A stretch of 64,000 bases of DNA from a virus (IMGVR_UViG_3300033146_005641:55352-119351), one strand, 5' to 3'. Positions 3,036 to 40,663 are shown, counted from the first letter of the stretch. The notes: generated by a model from the sequence alone, not told the origin. Translations and numbers: made by a program.

Positions 3036-3611
3036 TTAAAGAGCGTTTTCGTTTTCTGATGCGTTTTTAGGCTCGTAAGAAGATGATTCTTCATTACCTA
3101 TAACCCAGTCACTGTAAGCGAAGGTCATATCAAATTCAGCAATTGTATCTGAAGAGTCATCGCCATAAGAAATCTCACCGATGCTTTGAGGAAAACAATT
3201 GTGAAGTGTATAAGTAGCTACAGGTTTTCCTGCTGAATCTAATTGTTCAACTCTTAAATCAGCTAAAACCGAGCCAGGGTTTCCTGCGTGTTTATTTTCT
3301 TGAAAATTGTCGCAGGCGTCAGCCCATTTAATCATATCTAATCTGAATGAATGATTTTCTTGTAGATAGAAACTTAAACTCCAAGCATTATCGAATGTAG
3401 TATCGCCAGGTAAGATTAATTTTCTACCTTGACTCCATACTTCAATTTGTCCTACTTCTTTACCCGGTGCTGTAGCACTTTTCGCTAAAACGTCTACTTC
3501 ATTCAAAGCTGTAGCACCTGAAACTGAAGAAGGAAAAGAAAATGTTACTCTATATTTATTTGCTCTTGCTCCTGCTCCAAGTGCAGCAGAAAGTTCTTTG
3601 ATTGTAGCCAT
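3036..3611 (-). CDS. gp19: Tail tube protein
   Basis: GARANKYRVTF, PG..VG.IEV...GRKLILPGD.TF..W, F.NCFPQSIGEISY, EF.MTFAYSDW. Confidence 0.93.
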   Translation of the reverse strand: MATIKELSAALGAGARANKYRVTFSFPSSVSGATALNEVDVLAKSATAPGKEVGQIEVWSQGRKLILPGDTTFDNAWSLSFYLQENHSFRLDMIKWADACDNFQENKHAGNPGSVLADLRVEQLDSAGKPVATYTLHNCFPQSIGEISYGDDSSDTIAEFDMTFAYSDWVIGNEESSSYEPKNASENENAL

Positions 3612-16607: not shown

Positions 16608-19600
16608 ATGAATGACATTGTCGGTGTATCAGGTGATTACACGCTCAATTCAATAAACATTAAAGAAGATAAGGTTTTTAGAAGTGTAGTAGAAGCTATT
16701 ACGCCTGAAAAAATATTTAAAGAAAACAAAGAATTGATTGATGCTTTTGTAGATATCCTAGTAGAAGAATCTCCTATATCTATTAATATAATGGATATAT
16801 TTAATAAAGATAAAAGCATAGAGAGTTTAGATGCTGTTCAGAAACAATTTGCAGAAGTTTATTTAAATAATTTTTATACCGTTTGGAATAAAGCCAAAAC
16901 CGACTTTAGATTAAAAAATAAAATAGATAATCTTCTTAAAGAATATTCTAATCTGGGTGTGGAAATAGATAGAAAAAAATCTTTTATAAACTTTTTCAAA
17001 AATGAAGAAGAGATGTATACTTCTGATAGATATATGATGGCTAAAACCTTTAATGAAAAAAAAGGTACTGAAGTAGCTATTGAATACGCCTATAAATTAG
17101 CGTGGTTATCAGGAATTGAAGGACCTCTTAGAGATGCTTATTTTTTCGATATACACTCTCAGTCTTGTTTAGGACTTTCTGAAGGATTTATTATCTGTGG
17201 AGATTCATTATCCGATCCTCTACCTCCAGAGCCTACACAAGAGGAGAAAGATTTATTTCCTAATATTTGGCCTCTTCCTAGTGAGATTCCTATTTTATGT
17301 AGTGATTCCTCTGCTTCTAGAATAGGTACTTTTACTATTTCTGATTCTGTATCTTATGATTCTTGTACAAAATTTACATATCAGATAGAGGGTTCGTTAT
17401 TTCCGGAATTTTTTGAAGCTTTTGTTTTACCTCTAGCACATCCTATAGGCTTTAATTATATCTATAGAAAAATAACATCTATAGCTTTCGAAGATTATTT
17501 TAATTTAGAATATATATACAGATGTGACGAAATCGGTGTTAGAAGTCTTTGTAAAGAAGGAGATTGTTCAGAGGCTCTTACAGAACCTTACGGTATAAGA
17601 GCTACATACGATGATAACGGAAATATTATTACTCGCGGAGGAGGAATTACTAACTCACAACTAAAGTATATTGAAAAAGGTATAATGGTAAGAGGAACAT
17701 ATAAGGATTGGGATTATGAAAAATATACATTCGATAATCAAAATTATTTAATTCAATATACTTATGCACCGCCGTTAGGGAAAGTTCAACAGGTAATAGA
17801 ATATTATGATATTAATTTAAATAGATCCTATAATTATGTTAAAAACTCTTCTTTCGAAGAGTGGTATGATTGGAATATACAATTACACGGAAATTGGACT
17901 ATAGGTACAGGTAAAGCCGTATTCAGTGGTAGAACAACAACTGGCGAAGATGATACGTATAAATTAACACAACCTATTTCGTTACAAAAAGATAAAAATT
18001 ATGAAATAGTAATTAAAGTAGAAAATCTCACACCGGGAGGACAAATTATATTAAGAATAAACGAAAGAAACGTTTATGACGAAAACGGGAATGTAGTAGG
18101 TGTAGATTATGACGAATGGGTTTTATCTGAAAATATTGAATATAATTTAGGATATACAGGATATGGTGGTGAAGAAATACAAGTATTCACTAATGAAGCT
18201 AACGTAGAATTTTCTATAGATTATATAAACGTATTTATTAATGAGCCTAATAAATCCTATACTAATGATAAGGATCAAAGCGATATATACATTATAAACC
18301 TTGATATTCCTATTTTAAATTTATTTACTTATGATGAAATTATAACAGATATTCAATCTGTTTTTACCGAAGATATGAATGAGTTATATTATGACTATCT
18401 AACAGATGATGATAGATATCCTATTATTGGTCAAAATATGATAATCAATGAATATAGTTTCGGAAGAGCGGATGTAGAAACTACTGGCGAAACTCAATGG
18501 GTAGACGTAAAAGAACATTTAACTGTAGAATATTTAGTTCCAACTAATGGTGAAGGTGAAGTTAGAACTCGTTATGAAGCTGTAAGAGATTTAGGATTAG
18601 TAGACATATTAAATGAAGATTTTACAGATATAAACCGTTGGAAAATATTAGTTAATAATATTAATTATAAGCTAGATATTGATGAAGATATTACTAGTGA
18701 GGGTGCTTTTAGAATTGGTGATAAATATTCTAATCCTACAGGTTTGGTTATTCCTAAGGGTTCCGATAACACTACTTATATGATAGAAGAATTAAGTATA
18801 GAAAGAGATTTTGAAGAGGAGTGGATTCAAGGATTAGACGATATTTCTTTTACTAATCCTTCTAAATGGTTTATGACATCCGATTGGAGGATAGAAGAAT
18901 TTTTCAATTCCGAATCTAACTTCGCTGAAATAAAACCAAGAAATACTATACAAACTACAGGTAATGAACAATTAATAGACGTTCAAATTGGTACGCTTAT
19001 AGAATATGTAGAGGCTGTTCAAGGACCCGATATAGATAATACTCCACCATTTGGACATAAGCATCATACATATGAGTCTTTAGAAAATAGAGGTGTTATA
19101 GATATTAACGAGGAAGATTTTATATCATCACCTAAATGGAAAAAATATAGAAGAACTGTAGACTCTTATTTATCTAGAGAAATAGATACAGATACTGTTC
19201 TTAATGATGAGATAATAAAATTAACTACATTAATAGACTTTCAGCATGAGTATAGCGATATTGATAACTGGATAGAGCTTACTATAGGACAAAAAGGTGA
19301 TGTAGTATATAGATATAAAAAAGATGAAGATTACTGGATAGAGATTAATACAGGAAATTTAGTTACTTATCAAAAATATAAAAACGGAATATTAGTATAT
19401 GAAAATCAATATGAGTCGGTTTTAGATAGAGGTGAAATTAATCTAAAAGAAGAAGATTTTACAGACTCTAATAACTGGACACTAATATCTAATACCGATA
19501 ACGTGCCGGATTATACATATAAATCCAATGATAATAATTTCGTTGTAGATATAAGTGTAGATATGACTATTGATGTTATTCAGGATAATTATTGGTCAAA

Positions 19601-19847
19601 TAGAGAAAGAAAAAGATATATTTCTAAAACCGATAGACTATCTGTGAATTTAGATTGGGAGGATTTCTCAGATGAAAATTTATGGATCGAAGAAGAGGTT
19701 AATAATCCCATAAGAGTATCTAATAGTACTCAAATAGAATGGGGAGGTAAGTATAAAGAAGATGATAAAATATACTTTACTGCTTCGCCTACCTTTAGAG
19801 GTAAAGTAACATATTTCGATACAAAAGTATTTAATAAAAAGTTATAA
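16608..19847 (+). CDS. Baseplate wedge subunit, gp7-like, with appended binding-type domains
   Basis: NEKKGTE.AIEY, FV.PLAHPIGF motifs; follows gp6. Confidence 0.7.
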   Translation: MNDIVGVSGDYTLNSINIKEDKVFRSVVEAITPEKIFKENKELIDAFVDILVEESPISINIMDIFNKDKSIESLDAVQKQFAEVYLNNFYTVWNKAKTDFRLKNKIDNLLKEYSNLGVEIDRKKSFINFFKNEEEMYTSDRYMMAKTFNEKKGTEVAIEYAYKLAWLSGIEGPLRDAYFFDIHSQSCLGLSEGFIICGDSLSDPLPPEPTQEEKDLFPNIWPLPSEIPILCSDSSASRIGTFTISDSVSYDSCTKFTYQIEGSLFPEFFEAFVLPLAHPIGFNYIYRKITSIAFEDYFNLEYIYRCDEIGVRSLCKEGDCSEALTEPYGIRATYDDNGNIITRGGGITNSQLKYIEKGIMVRGTYKDWDYEKYTFDNQNYLIQYTYAPPLGKVQQVIEYYDINLNRSYNYVKNSSFEEWYDWNIQLHGNWTIGTGKAVFSGRTTTGEDDTYKLTQPISLQKDKNYEIVIKVENLTPGGQIILRINERNVYDENGNVVGVDYDEWVLSENIEYNLGYTGYGGEEIQVFTNEANVEFSIDYINVFINEPNKSYTNDKDQSDIYIINLDIPILNLFTYDEIITDIQSVFTEDMNELYYDYLTDDDRYPIIGQNMIINEYSFGRADVETTGETQWVDVKEHLTVEYLVPTNGEGEVRTRYEAVRDLGLVDILNEDFTDINRWKILVNNINYKLDIDEDITSEGAFRIGDKYSNPTGLVIPKGSDNTTYMIEELSIERDFEEEWIQGLDDISFTNPSKWFMTSDWRIEEFFNSESNFAEIKPRNTIQTTGNEQLIDVQIGTLIEYVEAVQGPDIDNTPPFGHKHHTYESLENRGVIDINEEDFISSPKWKKYRRTVDSYLSREIDTDTVLNDEIIKLTTLIDFQHEYSDIDNWIELTIGQKGDVVYRYKKDEDYWIEINTGNLVTYQKYKNGILVYENQYESVLDRGEINLKEEDFTDSNNWTLISNTDNVPDYTYKSNDNNFVVDISVDMTIDVIQDNYWSNRERKRYISKTDRLSVNLDWEDFSDENLWIEEEVNNPIRVSNSTQIEWGGKYKEDDKIYFTASPTFRGKVTYFDTKVFNKKL

Positions 19848-32895: not shown

Positions 32896-33234
32896 ATGAA
32901 GAAGGCGACAGAAGAGAAAATAAAATCTATTAAAAGAGGAGATATAGTTAGATTAGAATATACTAATAAACGTGGTTCAATATGCTATTTAACGTGTTTA
33001 ATTATAGATATAGATGTAGAACAACTATCTATAGAAATTTTAGAGTTATTCAATGACTCTAATTCTTTTATTAGTGATAATTTCATTAAACTTAATAGTA
33101 TAGGAGCTAATAGTAGTTTTTCCATAAAAAATACTGTAATTTCATCCGTCATAAGTGAAGATGAAATATTACAATATTCTTCTAAAGAATTAAAAGGTGT
33201 AGTTAATAAAAGAGTACCCTATATATTTATTTAA
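32896..33234 (+). CDS. Hypothetical early protein (C-terminal PYIFI tail)
   Basis: Single-gene insertion after an early promoter. Confidence 0.6.
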   Translation: MKKATEEKIKSIKRGDIVRLEYTNKRGSICYLTCLIIDIDVEQLSIEILELFNDSNSFISDNFIKLNSIGANSSFSIKNTVISSVISEDEILQYSSKELKGVVNKRVPYIFI

Positions 33235-33947
33235 ATTTTTATAGGTGAGGTTGGATTAGTTCTATTATAAACGCCGTTTAAGAAATATGGAGTTTGTGTC
33301 CATTTTATAATTTTTTCTCTATTATTTAAAATCTTATTGTTAATTTCTAGTTCTAATTCGCCTAACTTATGTTCTTTCATATCTATTAATATACTTTTAG
33401 GAAAAAGAACATTTTTTATATTAGGATCGAAGCACATAGCTAATCTATATCTATTATTAATATATTTACCTAATATATAAATTTTTCCGTAGGTTTTTGA
33501 TAAATTTAATAATTGTTCTTGATTTTTATATTGAAATATTATAGTTCTTTTAGATTTTAACGCTTCATTAAAAGCATCATTATTTATATAATCCTTAATA
33601 GATGAAAGATTTTTATTAAATCTATATAGCTTTAATATATCTCTAGGTACTAAAGGTCTTACCTTAGTTAATAAAGAATTCCATCTACTTTTAGTAACAT
33701 TTTCATAATTTAACATCGAAGGCTTGATTTTATTCTCTAATCTTAGATAAAAACTATATGGAGTTCTGAGCAGTATAAATTCTTCATATTTGACTTTATT
33801 ATTTTCTAAAGCTTGTAGAGATTCATTATAGTGGTTTACATCGTAAAAGGGATCGATAGTGAATATTTCATTGATATTCTCAATACCTATAGTATCAGAA
33901 ATTGACAATGATTCTAATACGTTTGTAGAGTTATTTTCTTCTTTCAT
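33231..33947 (-). CDS. Hypothetical late protein
   Basis: 238-aa ORF preceded by TATAAATA (33952-33959). Confidence 0.65.
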   Translation of the reverse strand: MKEENNSTNVLESLSISDTIGIENINEIFTIDPFYDVNHYNESLQALENNKVKYEEFILLRTPYSFYLRLENKIKPSMLNYENVTKSRWNSLLTKVRPLVPRDILKLYRFNKNLSSIKDYINNDAFNEALKSKRTIIFQYKNQEQLLNLSKTYGKIYILGKYINNRYRLAMCFDPNIKNVLFPKSILIDMKEHKLGELELEINNKILNNREKIIKWTQTPYFLNGVYNRTNPTSPIKI

Positions 33948-33951
33948 ATAT

Positions 33952-33986
33952 TATTTATATAATTTTAAGTATATTTATTATATAAT
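33952..33986. promoter_or_regulatory. Back-to-back late (-) and early (+) promoters
   Basis: TATTTATA-taa-TTTTAAG-N11-TATAAT. Confidence 0.65.
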
Positions 33987-33991
33987 ATATT

Positions 33992-34549
33992 ATGAAAAAA
34001 GAAACTATAGAAAATTATTTAACAGAGGAGAGTTTAGGAATATATCTTGAAGAAATGTTCGATAACTGTAATATAATTCATAATAAGAAAGTAGAAGGAT
34101 GTAATCTCCGAAATAGACCGGATTATAGAATAGGTTACGTTATTTTTGAGTTTGATGGTTATCTACATTATACTAATCCTAAAACTATATTGAAAGATTA
34201 TAATTGTAATAAGGTGTGGAGTGAAAAATATAAAATAATTAGAATACCCTACTTTATACAAATGAAAAGAGATATTCTTAATAATATATCATTAGGTGAT
34301 GATTATTTAAAATTAGAATCTCAATTTAAATCAGGTTTTTGGAGCGATGATTGTAAATTACCTGCAGAATTTTGTGAATTAGGAATAAAAAGATTTATCA
34401 ATAATTATAATTATTATAAAAATCATCAAAAAGAAATTATTGAAAGTTTAGAAAAGAAAATAGAAAATCTTAGCGATATTTTATTGGTACTTCCCGAATC
34501 ATTATTCGAATGGTTTGAAGGAGAGAAACAAAAACTTAAAAGAACCTAA
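33992..34549 (+). CDS. PD-(D/E)XK-type (Vsr/DUF559-like) endonuclease, possibly free-standing homing endonuclease
   Basis: RPDY....VIFEFDG..HY, IIRIPYF. Confidence 0.6.
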   Translation: MKKETIENYLTEESLGIYLEEMFDNCNIIHNKKVEGCNLRNRPDYRIGYVIFEFDGYLHYTNPKTILKDYNCNKVWSEKYKIIRIPYFIQMKRDILNNISLGDDYLKLESQFKSGFWSDDCKLPAEFCELGIKRFINNYNYYKNHQKEIIESLEKKIENLSDILLVLPESLFEWFEGEKQKLKRT

Positions 34550-34597
34550 GAGGTGGAGGAAGACTCTTAGGCTCATTTAAGTCCTCCTAGGAGGACT
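34545..34597. terminator. Double hairpin between convergent genes (gp23 terminator)
   Basis: cctaagag...ctcttagg and palindromic agtcctcctaggaggact. Confidence 0.65.
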
Positions 34598-34620
34598 AAA
34601 AAGACTTACAAAGTCAGTTC

Positions 34621-36003
34621 TTATTTAAGAACTGAACTTGCGAAATCTACACCGATAGTTGAAGCATATGGAGAAGCTTCACCCATACTTACAGCGTCAT
34701 CTACCCAAGGGTTAGTAGCAAGACCATAACGAGTCATCGCGATAAGAGCAGGTTGACCAGTTGGAACGTTTGTTACTTTTTGGATTTGAATTGGAGTATA
34801 TGGAGCATAAACACCAAGCGCATCTTGATTAGAACCTTTATAGATAAGAGTTGCATAATCGTCTTTAGCATAGTTATCAACTACTACTGAGAATTTATTA
34901 TCAAATCTACCTACAACAGCAGCGTTAGCAGCTTGTGGATTAACAGTTGAATCAACATCTGATGCATAGTAACCACCAATTTGCTCTAACATTGTAAGAA
35001 CTTTTGGAGAAACAAGTAGCTTGTTAGCCGCACCACGTTTATTTAATCTGCCGATTTCACGACTCATATCGCTAAGTTTAGTAGCAAGAAGTCTATAATC
35101 CTCAATTTCCCATCTTGATCTACCAGCACCACTTACATCAACAACAAAGTCAGAGTGAACTGTAGCATTAGTATTAACAAAATCAACAACCTCACGGTCA
35201 GTTTCAGCTTTGATTTCGTAGTTCATAAGACTCATAAGTTCTTGATCTGCAAGCACACCATGCATAGCTTTAAGATCTTGATACATCTCAATTGTATATT
35301 CTGCACGTAATTTACGAGTTCTAGCCTCAACTTGCTTACGCTCAACAGCGATACCAAGTGTATTCATTTCATTACCAGTAGTTCCTCTTACTTCACCTTC
35401 AGCAGTTGTATAAGAACCAGTGTAGTTAGGAAGAATTGCTTGCCAAGAAGCTTGATTTGAATACACGGCAGTTGCTTTAGTAGGTGTAGCTTCAGTATCA
35501 ACATCTTCATCAGCGATGAATTTAACAGAACCGGCGTCTAATTCTACAAGAACACGTCCAGAGACTTTATTAGCATGACCGAAACCATGAGTAGCAGGCT
35601 CAACATAAACAACAGTACCAGTAGCACCAGATGTAGCACCTGTAAGAGCATCTCCAACAACCTTAACAGCAGAAAGATCTAAAACTTGAGCCTGGATATT
35701 AGGATCGATTTCATTAGCTGTAGAACCGTCATAACGATTAGTTAGACTATAGATAAAACCTGTTGGACCGGCCATTGGTTGAACACCAAGAAGTTCGTTA
35801 GCAACTAGCGTAGGATATAATCTACGTAACATAGGCATTAAGAAAGGAGTAAATTGAGCAATATCTGCAGAGATAGTACCCTCAGCAATCATTTGCTTAG
35901 TTTCCTTTTCAGTATTCTCCATAATAGCAGCAAGTGTGCTTTTTTCAAACTCTCCAAGCGGGGCGTACTTAGTACTTTCTAAAAGTGCTTTATAATCAGC
36001 CAT
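34621..36003 (-). CDS. gp23: Major capsid protein
   Basis: L.P.L.ANELLGVQPM.GPTG.I, VEARTRKL.AEYT.E..QDLKA.HG, EI..E.DRE, YAPY.P, P.....TRYGL..NP. Confidence 0.98.
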   Translation of the reverse strand: MADYKALLESTKYAPLGEFEKSTLAAIMENTEKETKQMIAEGTISADIAQFTPFLMPMLRRLYPTLVANELLGVQPMAGPTGFIYSLTNRYDGSTANEIDPNIQAQVLDLSAVKVVGDALTGATSGATGTVVYVEPATHGFGHANKVSGRVLVELDAGSVKFIADEDVDTEATPTKATAVYSNQASWQAILPNYTGSYTTAEGEVRGTTGNEMNTLGIAVERKQVEARTRKLRAEYTIEMYQDLKAMHGVLADQELMSLMNYEIKAETDREVVDFVNTNATVHSDFVVDVSGAGRSRWEIEDYRLLATKLSDMSREIGRLNKRGAANKLLVSPKVLTMLEQIGGYYASDVDSTVNPQAANAAVVGRFDNKFSVVVDNYAKDDYATLIYKGSNQDALGVYAPYTPIQIQKVTNVPTGQPALIAMTRYGLATNPWVDDAVSMGEASPYASTIGVDFASSVLK

Positions 36004-36029
36004 TTTATTTCCTTTTTATATTTTAATTA

Positions 36030-36037
36030 TATTTATA
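36030..36037 (-). promoter_or_regulatory. Late promoter TATAAATA (gp23)
   Basis: Exact consensus upstream of SD aagga. Confidence 0.75.
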
Positions 36038-36069
36038 TTTATTATTAACTAAACTAATAGTTAATGGGT

Positions 36070-36123
36070 CTTGAAAAGCCGACACTATGTCGTTTCAGCT
36101 CTATTTCAATTCTGCTTTTCAAG
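36070..36123 (-). ncRNA. Structured RNA motif copy B (unknown family), 3' of gp22
   Basis: 10-bp P1 cttgaaaagc/gcttttcaag, bulge agaattgaaatagagctgaaa, P2 cgaca-tag-tgtcg. Confidence 0.6.
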
Positions 36124-36129
36124 CTTATA

Positions 36130-36861
36130 TTAAACGTATTTGCTAAAGTCGATAGCAGCAGCTACGTCTACTTCTTCAGATTTATATGCAACACCTGGTA
36201 GTTTAGCAGCTTCCGCTGATTCATTGAAGTTATCAGCTCTATTAGAGATTAAATTTTCTTTAATAGTTTCAAGAGCATTAACATATTTTTCATCTTTAGA
36301 GAATTCGATCATTTCAGCTAAAGTTTCAAATTTTTCTTTTTCTGAAATAGTTAAACCTTCAGAAATTTCAGCGATGACACCCGCTTTAAGATATTGTGTA
36401 GCTTCTTTTTTAGCTTCAATAAGTTCGTGTTCTTTTTCAGTTAGTTTATCTTCAAGTCTAGCTAATCTATTTTCTAAAGAATTTTCATCTTCCATGATTT
36501 CTTTTTCAGTTTTAGCTTCTTGAATTTCTAGCATTTCAACACCAACAACCTTAATCATACTATCAAACATTTCTAAAAGTTTTTCAGTTTTAGATTCTTC
36601 GATAATTCTTTCGTGTTTAACTTCGTTTTCAGCTACGAATTCTTCTACTACTGAAGTAAGATAGCCATCTAAAGTTTCTTCAAGATCTTCTACTTTTTCT
36701 TGATACTCTTCTTCAAGTTCGGCACGAGCTTCTTCAATCTTTTCTTGAACGTGTGACTCCATAAGCTCAACAGACTTAGCCATAACCGCTTTATCAAAAG
36801 CTTCAGTTAGTTCTGCTTTTGTTTTATCATCAATATTTAATGATTCAAATAATTCGTTCAT
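36130..36861 (-). CDS. gp22: Prohead scaffolding/core protein
   Basis: MNELFES, AELTEAF..AV, LDGYL..VVEE...EN, E.F..LAE.IE, Y..AL.TIKE; ATG 36861 after SD aagga. Confidence 0.9.
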   Translation of the reverse strand: MNELFESLNIDDKTKAELTEAFDKAVMAKSVELMESHVQEKIEEARAELEEEYQEKVEDLEETLDGYLTSVVEEFVAENEVKHERIIEESKTEKLLEMFDSMIKVVGVEMLEIQEAKTEKEIMEDENSLENRLARLEDKLTEKEHELIEAKKEATQYLKAGVIAEISEGLTISEKEKFETLAEMIEFSKDEKYVNALETIKENLISNRADNFNESAEAAKLPGVAYKSEEVDVAAAIDFSKYV

Positions 36862-36882
36862 CGAATTGTCCTTTTTATTTTT

Positions 36883-36942
36883 AAAAATTAAGATTCTCAT
36901 TTACATGAGATTTCACTCTTTTTCATCTCTATCTTAATTTTT
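36883..36942 (-). ncRNA. Structured RNA motif copy A (unknown family), 5' leader of gp22
   Basis: 12-bp P1 aaaaattaagat/atcttaattttt, bulge agagatgaaaaagagtgaaa, P2 tctcat-GTAA-atgaga. Confidence 0.6.
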
Positions 36943-36950
36943 CTTTATTT

Positions 36951-36958
36951 TATTTATA
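36951..36958 (-). promoter_or_regulatory. Late promoter TATAAATA (gp22)
   Basis: Exact consensus; predicted +1 just before motif copy A. Confidence 0.7.
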
Positions 36959-36997
36959 ATTTAAAATTATCTAGTCTTTCTAAGATCGTCTTAAGAT

Positions 36998-37213
36998 TTA
37001 TACTTGACTAGACTCATATTCCATATCTATTAATATGTTTTGTATTTCTTTAGCTTTTTTAATTACACTATCGACAGAAACAGCGATACCCTCATTCTTA
37101 TATATCCTTTTAATACGAGAAGCTTGTTGAAGACTATATTCTACGAGTTCTATTAGTTTCTCGACATCTTTTTCCGCTTTAATGCTCTCACTAAATTTTT
37201 CTTTAAATTTCAC
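36998..37213 (-). CDS. Small putative internal head protein
   Basis: MKFKEKFSE/S N-terminus; in the head operon. Confidence 0.6.
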   Translation of the reverse strand: MKFKEKFSESIKAEKDVEKLIELVEYSLQQASRIKRIYKNEGIAVSVDSVIKKAKEIQNILIDMEYESSQV

Positions 37214-37223
37214 AATAATCCTT

Positions 37224-37484
37224 TTATATATAGTTTAATTCTGATAATAAAGGTTTAGACATTTCTAATTTTTTAGCTTCTACTAAAGCAGAAGATTCTA
37301 TCATTTCTCTATATCTATCCTGATCTTCGACTAAATTATGTTCTAAATCAAAGATCTCATATTTTTCGTTAATATAACATTCGACAGTTTCAGTAAAAGG
37401 ATTAGAATAAAATATTCTATATCCGTCTACTTGAGTCTCTTGAATTGTTTTAGAAAAAATCTCTTCAAAGTTAAACATACTCAC
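37224..37484 (-). CDS. Hypothetical head-operon protein
   Basis: Coupled to the gp21 stop. Confidence 0.6.
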   Translation of the reverse strand: MSMFNFEEIFSKTIQETQVDGYRIFYSNPFTETVECYINEKYEIFDLEHNLVEDQDRYREMIESSALVEAKKLEMSKPLLSELNYI

Positions 37485-38788
37485 TAGTAATCCTTTCCAA
37501 ACTCATATTCAGAAAAAATATCTAATTCGTTCCAAGCGTTAGCTAATAATTCTTGAGCCTTTTTAAGACTTTTTAGTGAGATAGGATCTTGATAATCTTT
37601 TTTTAATCTCGTAATGTATTTAGTTAATTCTTCTAACCTATCTTCTACATTCTTTTTATATTCGACTTCAGGATATTTAATATCTTTTTTTGTCTTAATA
37701 CCTTCTTGTAAACTATATCCAAGATATTTTTTTTCTATAGATGATCTTTCGTCGGGATTAGACATACTATATCCGTATTTATCGGCTATTTCTGCAGATA
37801 TTGATTTATATTTAGAACCATATTTTTTAACTAATTCTTTATAAAATCTTTCTTCTCTCTCTTTCTTTTTTCGAACGTATTCTTTATAGTCTTCACCAAA
37901 AATTTTCTTAAAAGTTTCTATTTTAGCATCTTCTTCTATGCGTTTTAGAGTTAAATCTTTTTCACTAGCTATTTTTTCTAAAGCCTCTTTAAGCTCTTTT
38001 GCTTTTTTCTGACAAGGAGATTCTGTTTTAGATTCAGCTATAATATATCCTTTTAAACTATCTAATTCTACATCATTATCGAATTGATCTATACCAAAGA
38101 AACATCCGTCATCTTCGTGATGTAAAGAAATTAATTTACCTCTGTCGTCAGCTACCATAACTGGTTCTTTTTTCAGGCGTTTTTTAACTTCTTTAGTGAT
38201 GTCTCTAGATTCAGCTAGTGTACATCCTTCTGGAGTACATATCCATCCTCCATGACCGTTAGATTCTATATTTACACTTTCTAAGATGAGCGATTCATTA
38301 AAACCGTCTAAATTGGCATTCCAATCTGAAGGATTTTGAACTATATCATAAGTAATTAAAGTGAATTCTTCAACTATATCACCATTTAATTTACCTACAC
38401 CTCTAGAAGATACACCTATTTTTCGACCTGCATCAATACGCTCTCTAATATCTTTAGTTTCCGGCTTATTGAATATTACAGACTCACCGTAAACTCTTCC
38501 TTCGCGAATTTCTAGCTTACGAATCCTAGCAACAGCTTTTTCAGGATCTACTTCAGTTCTTGGAGGGTGTTCTTTTTCCATAAGAGTATTTTGAGTATTA
38601 TTCTCTATTTCTCTTTGATATCTAGTCACATTTTCTTCCCATATTCTCATAGGATATATACGACCGTTTCTATTTTTTAATTCCGGTGTACTAAATATAC
38701 CCTTGATAATATATGTTTTTTCACCAGTAGCTTCATTTAACTCTACTACTGTTTCTATATCTAGGCTTTCTTCTAGTATTAGCTTCAT
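37484..38788 (-). CDS. gp21: Prohead protease with long C-terminal extension
   Basis: IKGIF...E.KNRNGRIYP, E.EHP, GVSSRG.G, YDIV.NPS...A. Confidence 0.95.
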   Translation of the reverse strand: MKLILEESLDIETVVELNEATGEKTYIIKGIFSTPELKNRNGRIYPMRIWEENVTRYQREIENNTQNTLMEKEHPPRTEVDPEKAVARIRKLEIREGRVYGESVIFNKPETKDIRERIDAGRKIGVSSRGVGKLNGDIVEEFTLITYDIVQNPSDWNANLDGFNESLILESVNIESNGHGGWICTPEGCTLAESRDITKEVKKRLKKEPVMVADDRGKLISLHHEDDGCFFGIDQFDNDVELDSLKGYIIAESKTESPCQKKAKELKEALEKIASEKDLTLKRIEEDAKIETFKKIFGEDYKEYVRKKKEREERFYKELVKKYGSKYKSISAEIADKYGYSMSNPDERSSIEKKYLGYSLQEGIKTKKDIKYPEVEYKKNVEDRLEELTKYITRLKKDYQDPISLKSLKKAQELLANAWNELDIFSEYEFGKDY

Positions 38789-38822
38789 ATTTTTCCTTTA
38801 GATATAAAGATGAGATTAAATA

Positions 38823-39101
38823 CTAATCCTCATCCCCGTCTTTATCTTTATCTTTATCTTTATCCCCGTCTTTATCCCCGTCTTTATCTTTATCTTTGTC
38901 TTTATCTTCGTCCTTATCTTTATCTTTGTCTTTGTCTTTGTCTTTATCTAAAGCTTCTTTGATTTCAGATAGTTTAGACTTGAATTCTTGGATTTTTGGA
39001 TGATCATTTAACTTAGTTTTAAGACTATCTAAAGCTAATTCTTCAAACTTAACGTATTTTCTTTCTTCTGCAGACTTAATTAAATCTATAGTATTTGACA
39101 T
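38823..39101 (-). CDS. gp67: Prohead core protein with acidic (DK)n tail
   Basis: Between portal and gp21; helical N-part plus low-complexity D/K tail as in T4 gp67. Confidence 0.65.
   Translation of the reverse strand: MSNTIDLIKSAEERKYVKFEELALDSLKTKLNDHPKIQEFKSKLSEIKEALDKDKDKDKDKDKDEDKDKDKDKDGDKDGDKDKDKDKDGDED
38826..38949. repeat. Degenerate 6-bp tandem repeat (tttatc/tttgtc) encoding (DK)n
   Basis: Visible hexamer array. Confidence 0.9.
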
Positions 39102-39129
39102 TGGAGGTTCCTTTAATATCTTATTAATT

Positions 39130-39137
39130 TATTTATA
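39130..39137 (-). promoter_or_regulatory. Late promoter TATAAATA (gp67-gp21)
   Basis: Exact consensus. Confidence 0.65.
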
Positions 39138-39139
39138 AT

Positions 39140-40663
39140 TTAAAATTCGCTATCACTATAAAAATTATTATATAGCGGATTCGACCTTTCTTTTCTAATT
39201 CTTTCTACTTCTTCATCTATATTTTCAGAAGACCATCCTAAAGTAGTTTTAAGTGCGGTTTCTAAAGAAATTACTTTACCTATTTCTTCTTTAAGATCTT
39301 GAAAATTACCGATTCCTTTTAGAAATAGATCTCTATTCATATTTTCTAAAAATATAGATTTGCTAGAAAATTCTATTTTTATATCTTGTTCTATACTATC
39401 CCATTCTTGTTCAGACATATCTCCTGAATAGATTAATTCTCTTTTTAACATTCTTTTAAATAAAGAAGCAACAGGTTTTCTCAGTTTATCTACAAATAAA
39501 TAAAAAGACATATCTTCATTATTTATGCTGTCTGTTTCGTAACTAAAATCTGTAGAATCGTCTAAATACGGATTTCTATTAGAAGGAATTTTTAGAGAAG
39601 TGAATAATTTTTTAGAGGTATATAAAATATCCTCCATATCCATTAACCCGCCTTTTTCATCCATAGTTTCTACTGTAGTTCCTCTTCCCCCATTTCTATT
39701 AGATAGCCAATAATCTTCTACAAGAGGTTGAGTAGAATTTAAATTCTTAATAAAACCCTTTTCTACATCATAAGTTTTCTTATATTTAAATTCATTACGA
39801 ATTTGATTCATAAGCTCTTTTGCTTTTTTAGGAGGTAGTTCAGCAACATCAATATTAAATAATCTACGTGAAACCGATCTTGAGTATCTTAGAGGAACCA
39901 GTAAATTTTCTAGTGTTGATAGTTGATTTACGTATTTTGAAGCTTTTTCTAAATATCCTAGATTTACTTTAGTACTAGCTTCTTCATCTAAAATAACGTT
40001 TTTATATAGTTTAAAATCTATATGAATTAGTTCGTCGTTAGTATATTCCTCGTCAAAATCTTCTTTATTATAGTCGTATAATCCGACACCGCCCTGCTCA
40101 TCTTTTACGAACCGCCACGTCTTAGAATCTTTATTATAGTATAAATTAAAAGGTTCTAAAATATTAACTTTTTTAATTCCTTCTCTTAATTGACCTTTAT
40201 CATATATTAAAGACACGTTTAACTGTCCGTCAACGTATAGTTGTCTACAAATAATATCCATATTTTCGTTAACATTTACTATTGAACATAATTTGTTAAA
40301 TTTTTCTGTTACTTTATCTTTAAATTTCTTACTTTTATTTTCTATATTGATTTTAAGAATATCATCATTTAGAGAGAATATCATTTCGTTTACTAAAAGA
40401 TCAATAGCATAGTCTACGTCAGCGTTTTCAGATAGATTTCTATATTTTCTAATTATTTGATTTTGATAGTGTGTTGGTGAAGTTTTATCACCAAAACCGC
40501 CAAAAGAGTCAATTTCATTATTCATATTACTAAAAGCAACGACACCTAGATATTCATCAGATAATTCTGAAGATACGTTTATAGGATTAGTATTGCTTGA
40601 AGGAGATTTAATGACGTCTTCGTCTTTTATAAAAGGTTTTTTTAGAGCCTCCAATAGATTCAT
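39140..40663 (-). CDS. gp20: Portal vertex protein
   Basis: I..YR......DVD.AI, YVDG, YL.KA....NQL..LE......R..R...RR.F.IDV..LP.KKA, EDYWL..R.GGRGT.V.T. Confidence 0.97.
   Translation of the reverse strand: MNLLEALKKPFIKDEDVIKSPSSNTNPINVSSELSDEYLGVVAFSNMNNEIDSFGGFGDKTSPTHYQNQIIRKYRNLSENADVDYAIDLLVNEMIFSLNDDILKINIENKSKKFKDKVTEKFNKLCSIVNVNENMDIICRQLYVDGQLNVSLIYDKGQLREGIKKVNILEPFNLYYNKDSKTWRFVKDEQGGVGLYDYNKEDFDEEYTNDELIHIDFKLYKNVILDEEASTKVNLGYLEKASKYVNQLSTLENLLVPLRYSRSVSRRLFNIDVAELPPKKAKELMNQIRNEFKYKKTYDVEKGFIKNLNSTQPLVEDYWLSNRNGGRGTTVETMDEKGGLMDMEDILYTSKKLFTSLKIPSNRNPYLDDSTDFSYETDSINNEDMSFYLFVDKLRKPVASLFKRMLKRELIYSGDMSEQEWDSIEQDIKIEFSSKSIFLENMNRDLFLKGIGNFQDLKEEIGKVISLETALKTTLGWSSENIDEEVERIRKERSNPLYNNFYSDSEF

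Follow-up and report, generated by a model that had tools for sequence, protein, structure and literature searches.

The locus considered here raises two questions: whether a pair of short stem-forming elements beside the prohead scaffold gene of an uncultured T4-like phage represents a genuine RNA family, and what such an RNA would do at that place. The analysis was performed on a stretch of viral DNA of 64,000 nt (IMGVR_UViG_3300033146_005641:55352-119351), referred to below as the window, and on related loci. A sequence-only reading had described the pair as an unrecognised structured RNA motif that brackets the scaffold gene.

Two copies of one architecture in the head module

The head module of the window is of the T4 type and is encoded on the minus strand, with the genes for the portal and the head protease, small ORFs, gp22 and gp23. 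Both copies of the motif, termed A and B, are carried by the minus strand. As read from the sequence, each consists of a closing stem (P1), a purine-rich junction of 20–21 nt and a hairpin (P2) that abuts P1. The features are as follows.

39140-40663, minus strand: portal gene
37484-38788, minus strand: head maturation protease gene, 434 aa
36951..36958, minus strand: T4-type late promoter box of gp22, TATAAATA, 8 nt upstream of P1 of copy A
36883..36942, minus strand: copy A, assigned to the gp22 5′ leader; ViennaRNA fold, covariance-model match of 61.4 bits, orthologues in relatives
Parts of copy A, minus strand: P1, 36942-36931 with 36894-36883; junction, 36930-36911; P2 hairpin, 36910-36895
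36869..36874, minus strand: gp22 Shine–Dalgarno sequence AAAGGA, after an A-rich linker (start codon at 36861)
36130..36861, minus strand: gp22 prohead scaffold gene, 243 aa (Pfam PF25623 T4_CASP, E 3e-27)
36122..36129, minus strand: degenerate box TATAAGCT, at the position where relatives (e.g. L003) carry TATAAATA upstream of copy B
36070..36123, minus strand: copy B, in the gp22–gp23 spacer here; ViennaRNA fold, covariance-model match of 63.9 bits
Parts of copy B, minus strand: P1, 36123-36114 with 36079-36070; junction, 36113-36093; P2 hairpin, 36092-36080
36045..36064, minus strand: second small hairpin, 7 bp, 3′ of copy B (from the 111-nt-context fold and the downstream sequences)
36030..36037, minus strand: proximal gp23 late promoter box TATAAATA, with a motif-free leader of ~21 nt; in this lineage and L002 only
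34621..36003, minus strand: gp23 major capsid protein gene, 460 aa (Pfam PF07068 Gp23, E 9e-88)

Protease-family matches cover residues 1–205 only of the head protease, and its C-terminal extension of ~230 aa is poorly conserved among relatives.

Structures were predicted using ViennaRNA. With each copy folded alone, the minimum-free-energy fold was the proposed structure for both A and B, in agreement with the single architecture (P1, purine-rich bulge, abutting P2) that had been read by eye. In copy A, P1 has 12 bp, the junction 20 nt and P2 6 bp closed by a GUAA loop; the corresponding values for copy B are 10 bp, 21 nt and 5 bp with the loop UAG. The same structure was obtained as the minimum-free-energy fold of copy A in a 111-nt context. 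For copy B in a context of this length the minimum-free-energy fold is again the proposed structure, but the centroid differs. The z-scores, calculated for each copy alone, are −3.0 (A) and −2.3 (B). An alignment of the two junctions has 17 of 21 positions identical, each junction being made up of two AGA(R)-N-UGAAA units; an identity of about 17/21 with two UGAAA units had been given before, and it stands.

A structural helix scan of the whole 183-kb genome (29% G+C) returned only these two sites with a P1 of at least 10 bp, and strong covariance-model matches in this genome number exactly two (63.9 and 61.4 bits). The entire region is also covered by a 12-kb DNA contig of ~97% identity from an unlabelled run. 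Its sole change within either copy is at position 36114 (G to A on the plus strand), which turns the closing C–G pair of copy B into U–G, with pairing retained.

As to position, copy A does lie just after the gp22 late promoter, with TATAAATA 8 nt before it. Copy B had been placed 7 nt past the gp22 stop codon and upstream of the gp23 promoter; its place is right, but the gap between the stop codon and the start of copy B is 6 nt.

Covariation, anatomy and range of the family

Relatives were collected by means of the capsid protein and comprise 15 IMG/VR loci, 19 metagenome loci (several of which are the same records) and one contig from a Campylobacterales MAG. Their capsid identity to the major capsid protein of the window is 54–98%. 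A model-free helix scan, made before any model was built, found the same P1–junction–P2 layout at both orthologous places in the relatives, with unrelated stem sequences and a conserved junction. The covariance model was built first from six structurally unambiguous copies and was then rebuilt from 20. The final set contains 35 covariance-model matches, of which 33 are distinct, in an alignment fitted to the model. With the model, the architecture was found in ~20 related uncultured T4-like phage contigs, and orthologues of copy B occur at every related locus with enough upstream sequence.

That the stems differ in sequence and yet pair, as had been noted for copies A and B, was borne out in the 33 distinct sequences: standard pairing is present in 98.4% of cells, both-sided changes are found in all 12 of the modelled pairs and the covariation score is 1.006, compared with 0.25 ± 0.02 in shuffles. 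When the 3′ partners are slid by 1–3 columns, pairing falls to 34–46%. An earlier, smaller set gave 100% pairing. The covariation is not an artefact of the alignment, because model-free scans give perfect helices in every member. The signature of a functional RNA family, claimed at first from two copies, is supported (covarying stems, a conserved junction and sense strand only), and the homologues in related phages that had been named as a check do carry covarying stems (35 matches).

G–U pairs account for 23 of 374 cells and would be A–C mismatches on the opposite strand. The closing pair of P1 is U–G in 11 sequences, and every motif match is carried by the coding strand. The G–U pairs and the constant coding-strand location argue for an RNA rather than a double-stranded DNA site. 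The opposite view, that the elements are not RNA and represent chance inverted repeats in AT-rich spacers, or a protein site or cruciform in double-stranded DNA, draws on the base composition of the genome (29% G+C) and on single-fold z-scores of only −2.3 to −3.0; statistics from the window alone are indeed modest. It is difficult to reconcile with compensatory changes in every pair across the 33 sequences, with the strand specificity given by G–U pairs and constant orientation with the gene, and with full-structure IMG/VR matches that, among those listed, occur only in this clade. We consider it extremely improbable. The comparative data from the relatives make chance untenable, and a DNA cruciform was dropped because the covariation and the G–U pairs are against it. 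Judged by the alignments, chance or a DNA-level site is effectively excluded and the motif is a genuine structured RNA family with very strong covariation.

Over the family, P1 ranges from 6 to 14 bp, P2 from 3 to 7 bp and the junction from 19 to 23 nt, and the P2 loops may have any sequence. P2 abuts the 3′ arm of P1, so that the two share a continuous 3′ strand, with the junction on the 5′ strand, and coaxial stacking would be possible. P2 mostly opens with a pyrimidine. The junction consensus reads AGA(R), 1–2 variable nt, UGAAA, 0–1 nt, (A)GA, 1–5 variable nt, UGAAA; the AGA and both UGAAA are near-invariant, even where the capsid proteins are only 54–59% identical. On the 3′ side of the motif there is often a small, non-homologous hairpin and then an A-rich linker with a strong Shine–Dalgarno sequence. 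The distance from P1 to the start codon is 19–73 nt, and in the leader and downstream sequences no alternative pairing of the motif with the ribosome-binding site is evident.

In one subtype the junction is interrupted by a further hairpin, P1a, placed precisely in the gap between AGA(R) and the first UGAAA. P1a was located in the gp22 leaders of a distant subclade (L011, L013, L014, L015, L293 and L300, and by eye in L012), often with the loop UGAAAU, and in the gp23 leaders of L292, L297 and L300, with the loops UUCG or UUUU. P1a stems have different sequences and still pair, and the insertion site is the same in A and B copies. A fixed site at which a helix is tolerated is more in keeping with a definite three-dimensional fold, in which this site is peripheral, than with a linear binding site.

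Known families were searched for using cmscan on positions 35000–38000, as had been advised, and no match of the motif to Rfam 15 was obtained at E values up to 10; hammerhead, twister, pistol and hatchet were among the families without a match. Four unrelated matches were returned, all with E above 4 and none overlapping the motif. The result bears on the idea of a new self-cleaving ribozyme, or of a riboswitch in which the junction serves as the pocket. Such an RNA would be compact, with highly conserved unpaired nucleotides between helices, as is the motif, and with P1a the motif becomes a three-way junction, like many ribozymes and riboswitches. Besides the lack of an Rfam match, the junction strands (3–5, ~17 and 0 nt even in the three-helix subtype) are incompatible with the hammerhead core, which was rejected on this ground; neither an expression platform nor an alternative pairing is evident, and, so close to the 5′ end, a ribozyme would find hardly any upstream RNA to cut off. 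A ribozyme or riboswitch is accordingly rated as quite unlikely.

The T-loop pattern (U-N-N-R-A) accommodates UGAAA, and both UGAAA units are invariant in all members. The junction might then form a docking module in which two interdigitated UGAAA T-loops stack on a tRNA elbow or a flat RNA surface. Interdigitated T-loop modules are known from RNase P, the ribosomal L1 stalk and stem I of the T-box, and a review predicts that more will come to light (PMC4810234). The motif is similar in its two T-loop-like pentanucleotides (UGAAA), its AG-rich segments and its compactness. In the known pairs, however, each T-loop has a loop or bulge of its own within a larger fold; here both units are on one strand, 4–8 nt apart, between stacked helices of a predicted fold, and neither a specifier nor any other element that would read or decode a tRNA is present. 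A double T-loop module in this strict sense is very unlikely.

In GenBank phages there is no DNA match to the 1.2-kb region. The nearest cultured phages by capsid are Vibrio phiKT1024 and Campylobacter CP220 and NCTC12673 (40–46% identity); in these three the motif is absent and short plain leaders precede gp22 and gp23. Three context-free sequence-pattern scans of IMG/VR, filtered with the model, gave the full structure only in this clade plus one further contig, L090, among the matches listed, from which we take the family to be narrow. The remaining pattern-scan matches are chance, mostly in coding sequence. A catalogue of 8,495 candidate structured RNAs has been drawn from IMG/VR (PMC10690425), i.e. 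from the same data source and with the same kind of object; its main text does not describe the motif and makes no mention of scaffold or T4-like, and an unnamed DNAVirus_X entry of the catalogue may correspond to the motif. With respect to Rfam 15 and that main text, the family is previously undescribed.

Several further assignments were considered and rejected. A dispersed repeat, MITE or CRISPR-like array does not agree with two copies per genome whose stem sequences are not conserved between copies. An intrinsic terminator, also for copy B, is contradicted by zero terminator-like sites at 33000–39200, P1 being followed by A-rich or mixed sequence. For a Shine–Dalgarno mimic, GAGNUGA fits the anti-SD complement only if N is G, which is rare there. 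A CRISPR-repeat-like 'AUUGAAA' handle was dropped.

Two weaker resemblances were recorded in the genome. A 'half motif' hairpin at 19420–19448 (plus strand), with an 8-bp stem around AGAGGUGAAAUUA and a score of 28.6 bits with the rebuilt model, lies inside a 1079-aa ORF (16608–19847) and is probably a chance resemblance. A weak model match (13–23 bits) lies within the gp23 coding sequence at 35177–35219 (minus strand), at the peptide YEIKAETDREVVDF, and recurs at the same place in L002, L011, L014, L016 and L301. The codons concerned are AAAGCUGAAAC.GACCGUGAA, flanked by the pairing GAAAUC/GAUUUY, and the match is most likely a by-product of conserved protein sequence.

Hints of host and habitat are weak. 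The contig L301 (JAOZKZ010000004.1, 33 kb), with 57% capsid identity and a gp23-leader copy of 43.7 bits, was assigned to a Campylobacterales MAG by binning, which can go wrong, and so is a weak pointer to the host group; the host of the clade is possibly Campylobacterales. One run labelled as a hydrothermal vent metagenome contains a 295-nt contig that is 98% identical within gp22, and another contains a 10,944-nt contig, the same length as the L009 record; the remaining pieces in such runs are mostly too short for counting.

Late promoters, leaders and gene contexts

The copies are placed as a leader element downstream of a T4-type late promoter, on the same strand as the late structural gene that follows. 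A perfect T4-type box, TATAAATA, was found no more than 60 nt upstream in 31 of the 35 instances, and in 17 of those 31 it is 2–9 nt before P1. With just 60 occurrences in the 183-kb genome, or one in about 6.1 kb of each strand, the box is too rare for its association with the motif to be due to chance. T4 late transcripts begin about six nucleotides past the box. By analogy, P1 would begin 0–4 nt from the 5′ end of the transcript in about half of the cases. In eight cases the distance from box to P1 is 22–38 nt, and in these the stem would not lie at the extreme 5′ terminus. Copy B of the window is one of the four exceptions with no upstream box within 60 nt.

From its promoter and gene order, copy A is the putative gp22 5′ leader. 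In most relatives copy B can be assigned as the gp23 5′ leader, since it has its own TATAAATA upstream and there is no other box before gp23. Comparison of window positions 36030–36129 with L003:2860-3000 shows how the window differs. In the relatives TATAAATA is just upstream of copy B and none is present downstream, whereas the window and L002 (98% identical) have the degenerate TATAAGCT upstream of B and a perfect TATAAATA downstream. The relocation shortens the gp23 leader from ~110 nt with the motif to ~21 nt without it. By this comparison, the gp23 promoter has been relocated to the downstream side of B in one lineage only, that of the window and L002. As its own promoter box has been lost, copy B would here be transcribed only on gp22 read-through RNA.

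The view that the pair 'brackets' the scaffold gene does not survive the comparison. In relatives A leads gp22 and B leads gp23, each behind its own late promoter, and two further contexts contradict bracketing. In L013 a 170-aa ORF (2347–2859), present in L013 only, lies between gp22 and copy B, and copy B stays beside gp23. In L090 (IMGVR_UViG_3300033146_003000) a copy at 3449–3494 (minus strand, 44.8 bits), 2 nt after TATAAATA, leads a 346-aa tail-fibre-like gene (Mtd_N domain, tail PHROGs), which is a third gene context; this contig also has two endolysin-type genes. In L295 (Ga0164318_10091721) a motif copy lies ahead of a gp23 gene with introns. Two group I introns in tandem, which have repeated sequence blocks in common, break this gene after residue ~50 and give matches to Rfam Intron_gpI in L295:393-990 at 393–653 (62.9 bits) and 703–990 (89 bits).

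Leaders of T4-type late mRNAs are usually thought to be short and unstructured. Most other late genes of the 183-kb genome have leaders of only 10–25 nt, and the motif is present on only two of ~30 late promoter–gene pairs. Two near-complete genomes (183 and 235 kb) have exactly two strong copies each. Together, the two copies per genome and the short leaders elsewhere indicate that the structured leader is special to head-protein genes. For the biology, a leader of head-protein mRNAs close to a late promoter is a better description than brackets around the scaffold gene.

This placement invites comparison with the HK022 putL and putR RNAs, which are nascent antiterminator RNAs acting in cis on RNA polymerase (PMC9378689). 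A put-like RNA would bind the polymerase in cis and resist pausing and termination, so that long head transcripts are completed; for put itself the site of binding is the beta-prime zinc-binding domain, and termination is suppressed. Both systems have two related copies per genome, promoter-proximal and downstream of their promoters, 50–70 nt in length, with helices and conserved unpaired bases (PMC9378689 for put), and the motif would be transcribed first, straight after the late promoter. The put RNAs differ in having two adjacent stem-loops with a triplex, in place of one enclosing stem, and belong to early sigma-70 promoters of lambdoid phages; the motif matches them in neither sequence nor topology, and promoter-proximal placement only is common to the two. 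Further points against a put-like role are that no intrinsic terminator-like site is present at 33000–39200, that copy B of the window is at the end of the gp22 message and that only 2 of ~30 late promoter–gene pairs have the motif. On balance such a role seems improbable.

Function of the leader element

The element probably controls how much scaffold and major capsid protein is made. Among the roles suggested earlier (an operator balancing scaffold and capsid synthesis, a processing or self-cleavage site, or a ligand- or tRNA-binding element), the operator fits the context best. Our preferred reading, held tentatively and at somewhat less than even confidence, is a shared 5′-leader operator or stabiliser for head-protein mRNAs. 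The module is at or near the 5′ end of the late transcripts for the two most abundant head proteins, gp22 and gp23, and the nascent transcript would fold into it on leaving the polymerase. The conserved junction would then be where a single trans-acting factor docks, most likely a phage or host protein, whose binding may set the stability and/or translation of both mRNAs together. Set in parallel in this way, scaffold and capsid output would be coupled. The 5′-proximal closing stem may additionally shield the 5′ end from end-dependent decay. In the window copy A would keep this arrangement, and copy B would take part only on gp22 read-through transcripts.

That copy B travels with gp23, and not with gp22, is supported by its own promoter and by the ORF insertion in L013. 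Translational autoregulation of a scaffold gene has a precedent, as the P22 scaffolding protein is described as translationally autoregulated (bioRxiv 10.1101/2022.12.13.520362). The phage translational operators (the MS2 coat-protein hairpin, the T4 gp32 and RegA sites, and P22) are alike in being cis leader elements of a dosage-matched structural gene. Unlike those operators, the motif is common to two or three genes and stands 19–73 nt before the start codon, clear of the ribosome-binding site.

Several observations weigh against an operator. Nothing in the motif pairs with the ribosome-binding site, and P1 may be anything from 19 to 73 nt away from the start codon. CsrA (PF02599) was not found in the genome, which is 81% complete; RegA (PF01818) likewise gave no match in this 81%-complete genome, in a search that was blank in control genomes too, so that this negative has no weight. 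The gp22 protein is very acidic (pI 4.4) and hence an unlikely RNA binder. The small ORFs beside gp22 have no Pfam or PHROG family. One of 71 aa at 36998–37213 (minus strand), just upstream of the gp22 promoter, has no family match, and tblastn found it in none of the relatives, not even in L002 with its 98% capsid identity; it may be a recent insertion or not a gene. With the small ORFs lacking a family and the 71-aa ORF unconserved even in the closest relative, the neighbouring ORFs offer no candidate binder. Finally, as the proximal gp23 promoter of the window is motif-free, some gp23 expression at least must be able to do without the element.

A simpler account needs no factor. Stem-loops at the 5′ terminus stabilise bacterial mRNAs (ompA, Bacillus leader stabilisers), and the P1/P2 stack might act as a booster: decay that depends on the 5′ end (RppH with RNase J or RNase E) would be blocked, the A-rich zone where ribosomes land would stay accessible, and the junction would be conserved for the sake of folding alone. 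In its favour, about half of the copies have P1 0–4 nt past the inferred start site, the motif is used for the two late proteins in greatest demand, and an A-rich single-stranded linker and a strong Shine–Dalgarno sequence are present downstream. The 5′-terminal stabilisers of E. coli ompA and of Bacillus and phage leaders share with the motif a stable stem a few nucleotides from the 5′ end of a highly expressed mRNA, but are simple hairpins without a conserved 20-nt junction. For such a task a plain hairpin would suffice. Here ~13 unpaired nucleotides are near-invariant over deep divergence and the insertion site is fixed, which points to specific recognition or a tertiary fold, and eight copies sit 22–38 nt from the box. 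This factor-independent account is placed behind the shared operator or stabiliser and ahead of the other rivals, as a rather unlikely alternative.

A bolder proposal is that the junction, as a compact module of T-loop type, draws a large partner (the late RNA polymerase, a ribosome or a tRNA, for instance) to the opening nucleotides of the scaffold and capsid mRNAs. We hold this to be a speculative and unlikely proposition. If true, recruitment would constitute a new class of phage riboregulator in which transcription or translation of the head proteins is physically coupled, with stoichiometry set without a dedicated repressor.

Whichever role applies, the fold is new but the general kind of RNA, the cis-acting phage mRNA leader, is familiar; the family is confined to a narrow uncultured clade of T4-like phages. 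The element is small (~50 nt), has a clear consensus and occurs in natural variants with and without P1a, which makes it suited to experiments even though the phages are uncultured. In these phages the genes for the two proteins that are needed in the largest and best-matched amounts carry the same deeply conserved RNA module behind their promoters. If the module is an operator, or a docking element for the polymerase or ribosome, it would mean that the synthesis of scaffold and capsid is balanced at the RNA level in a T4-like phage.
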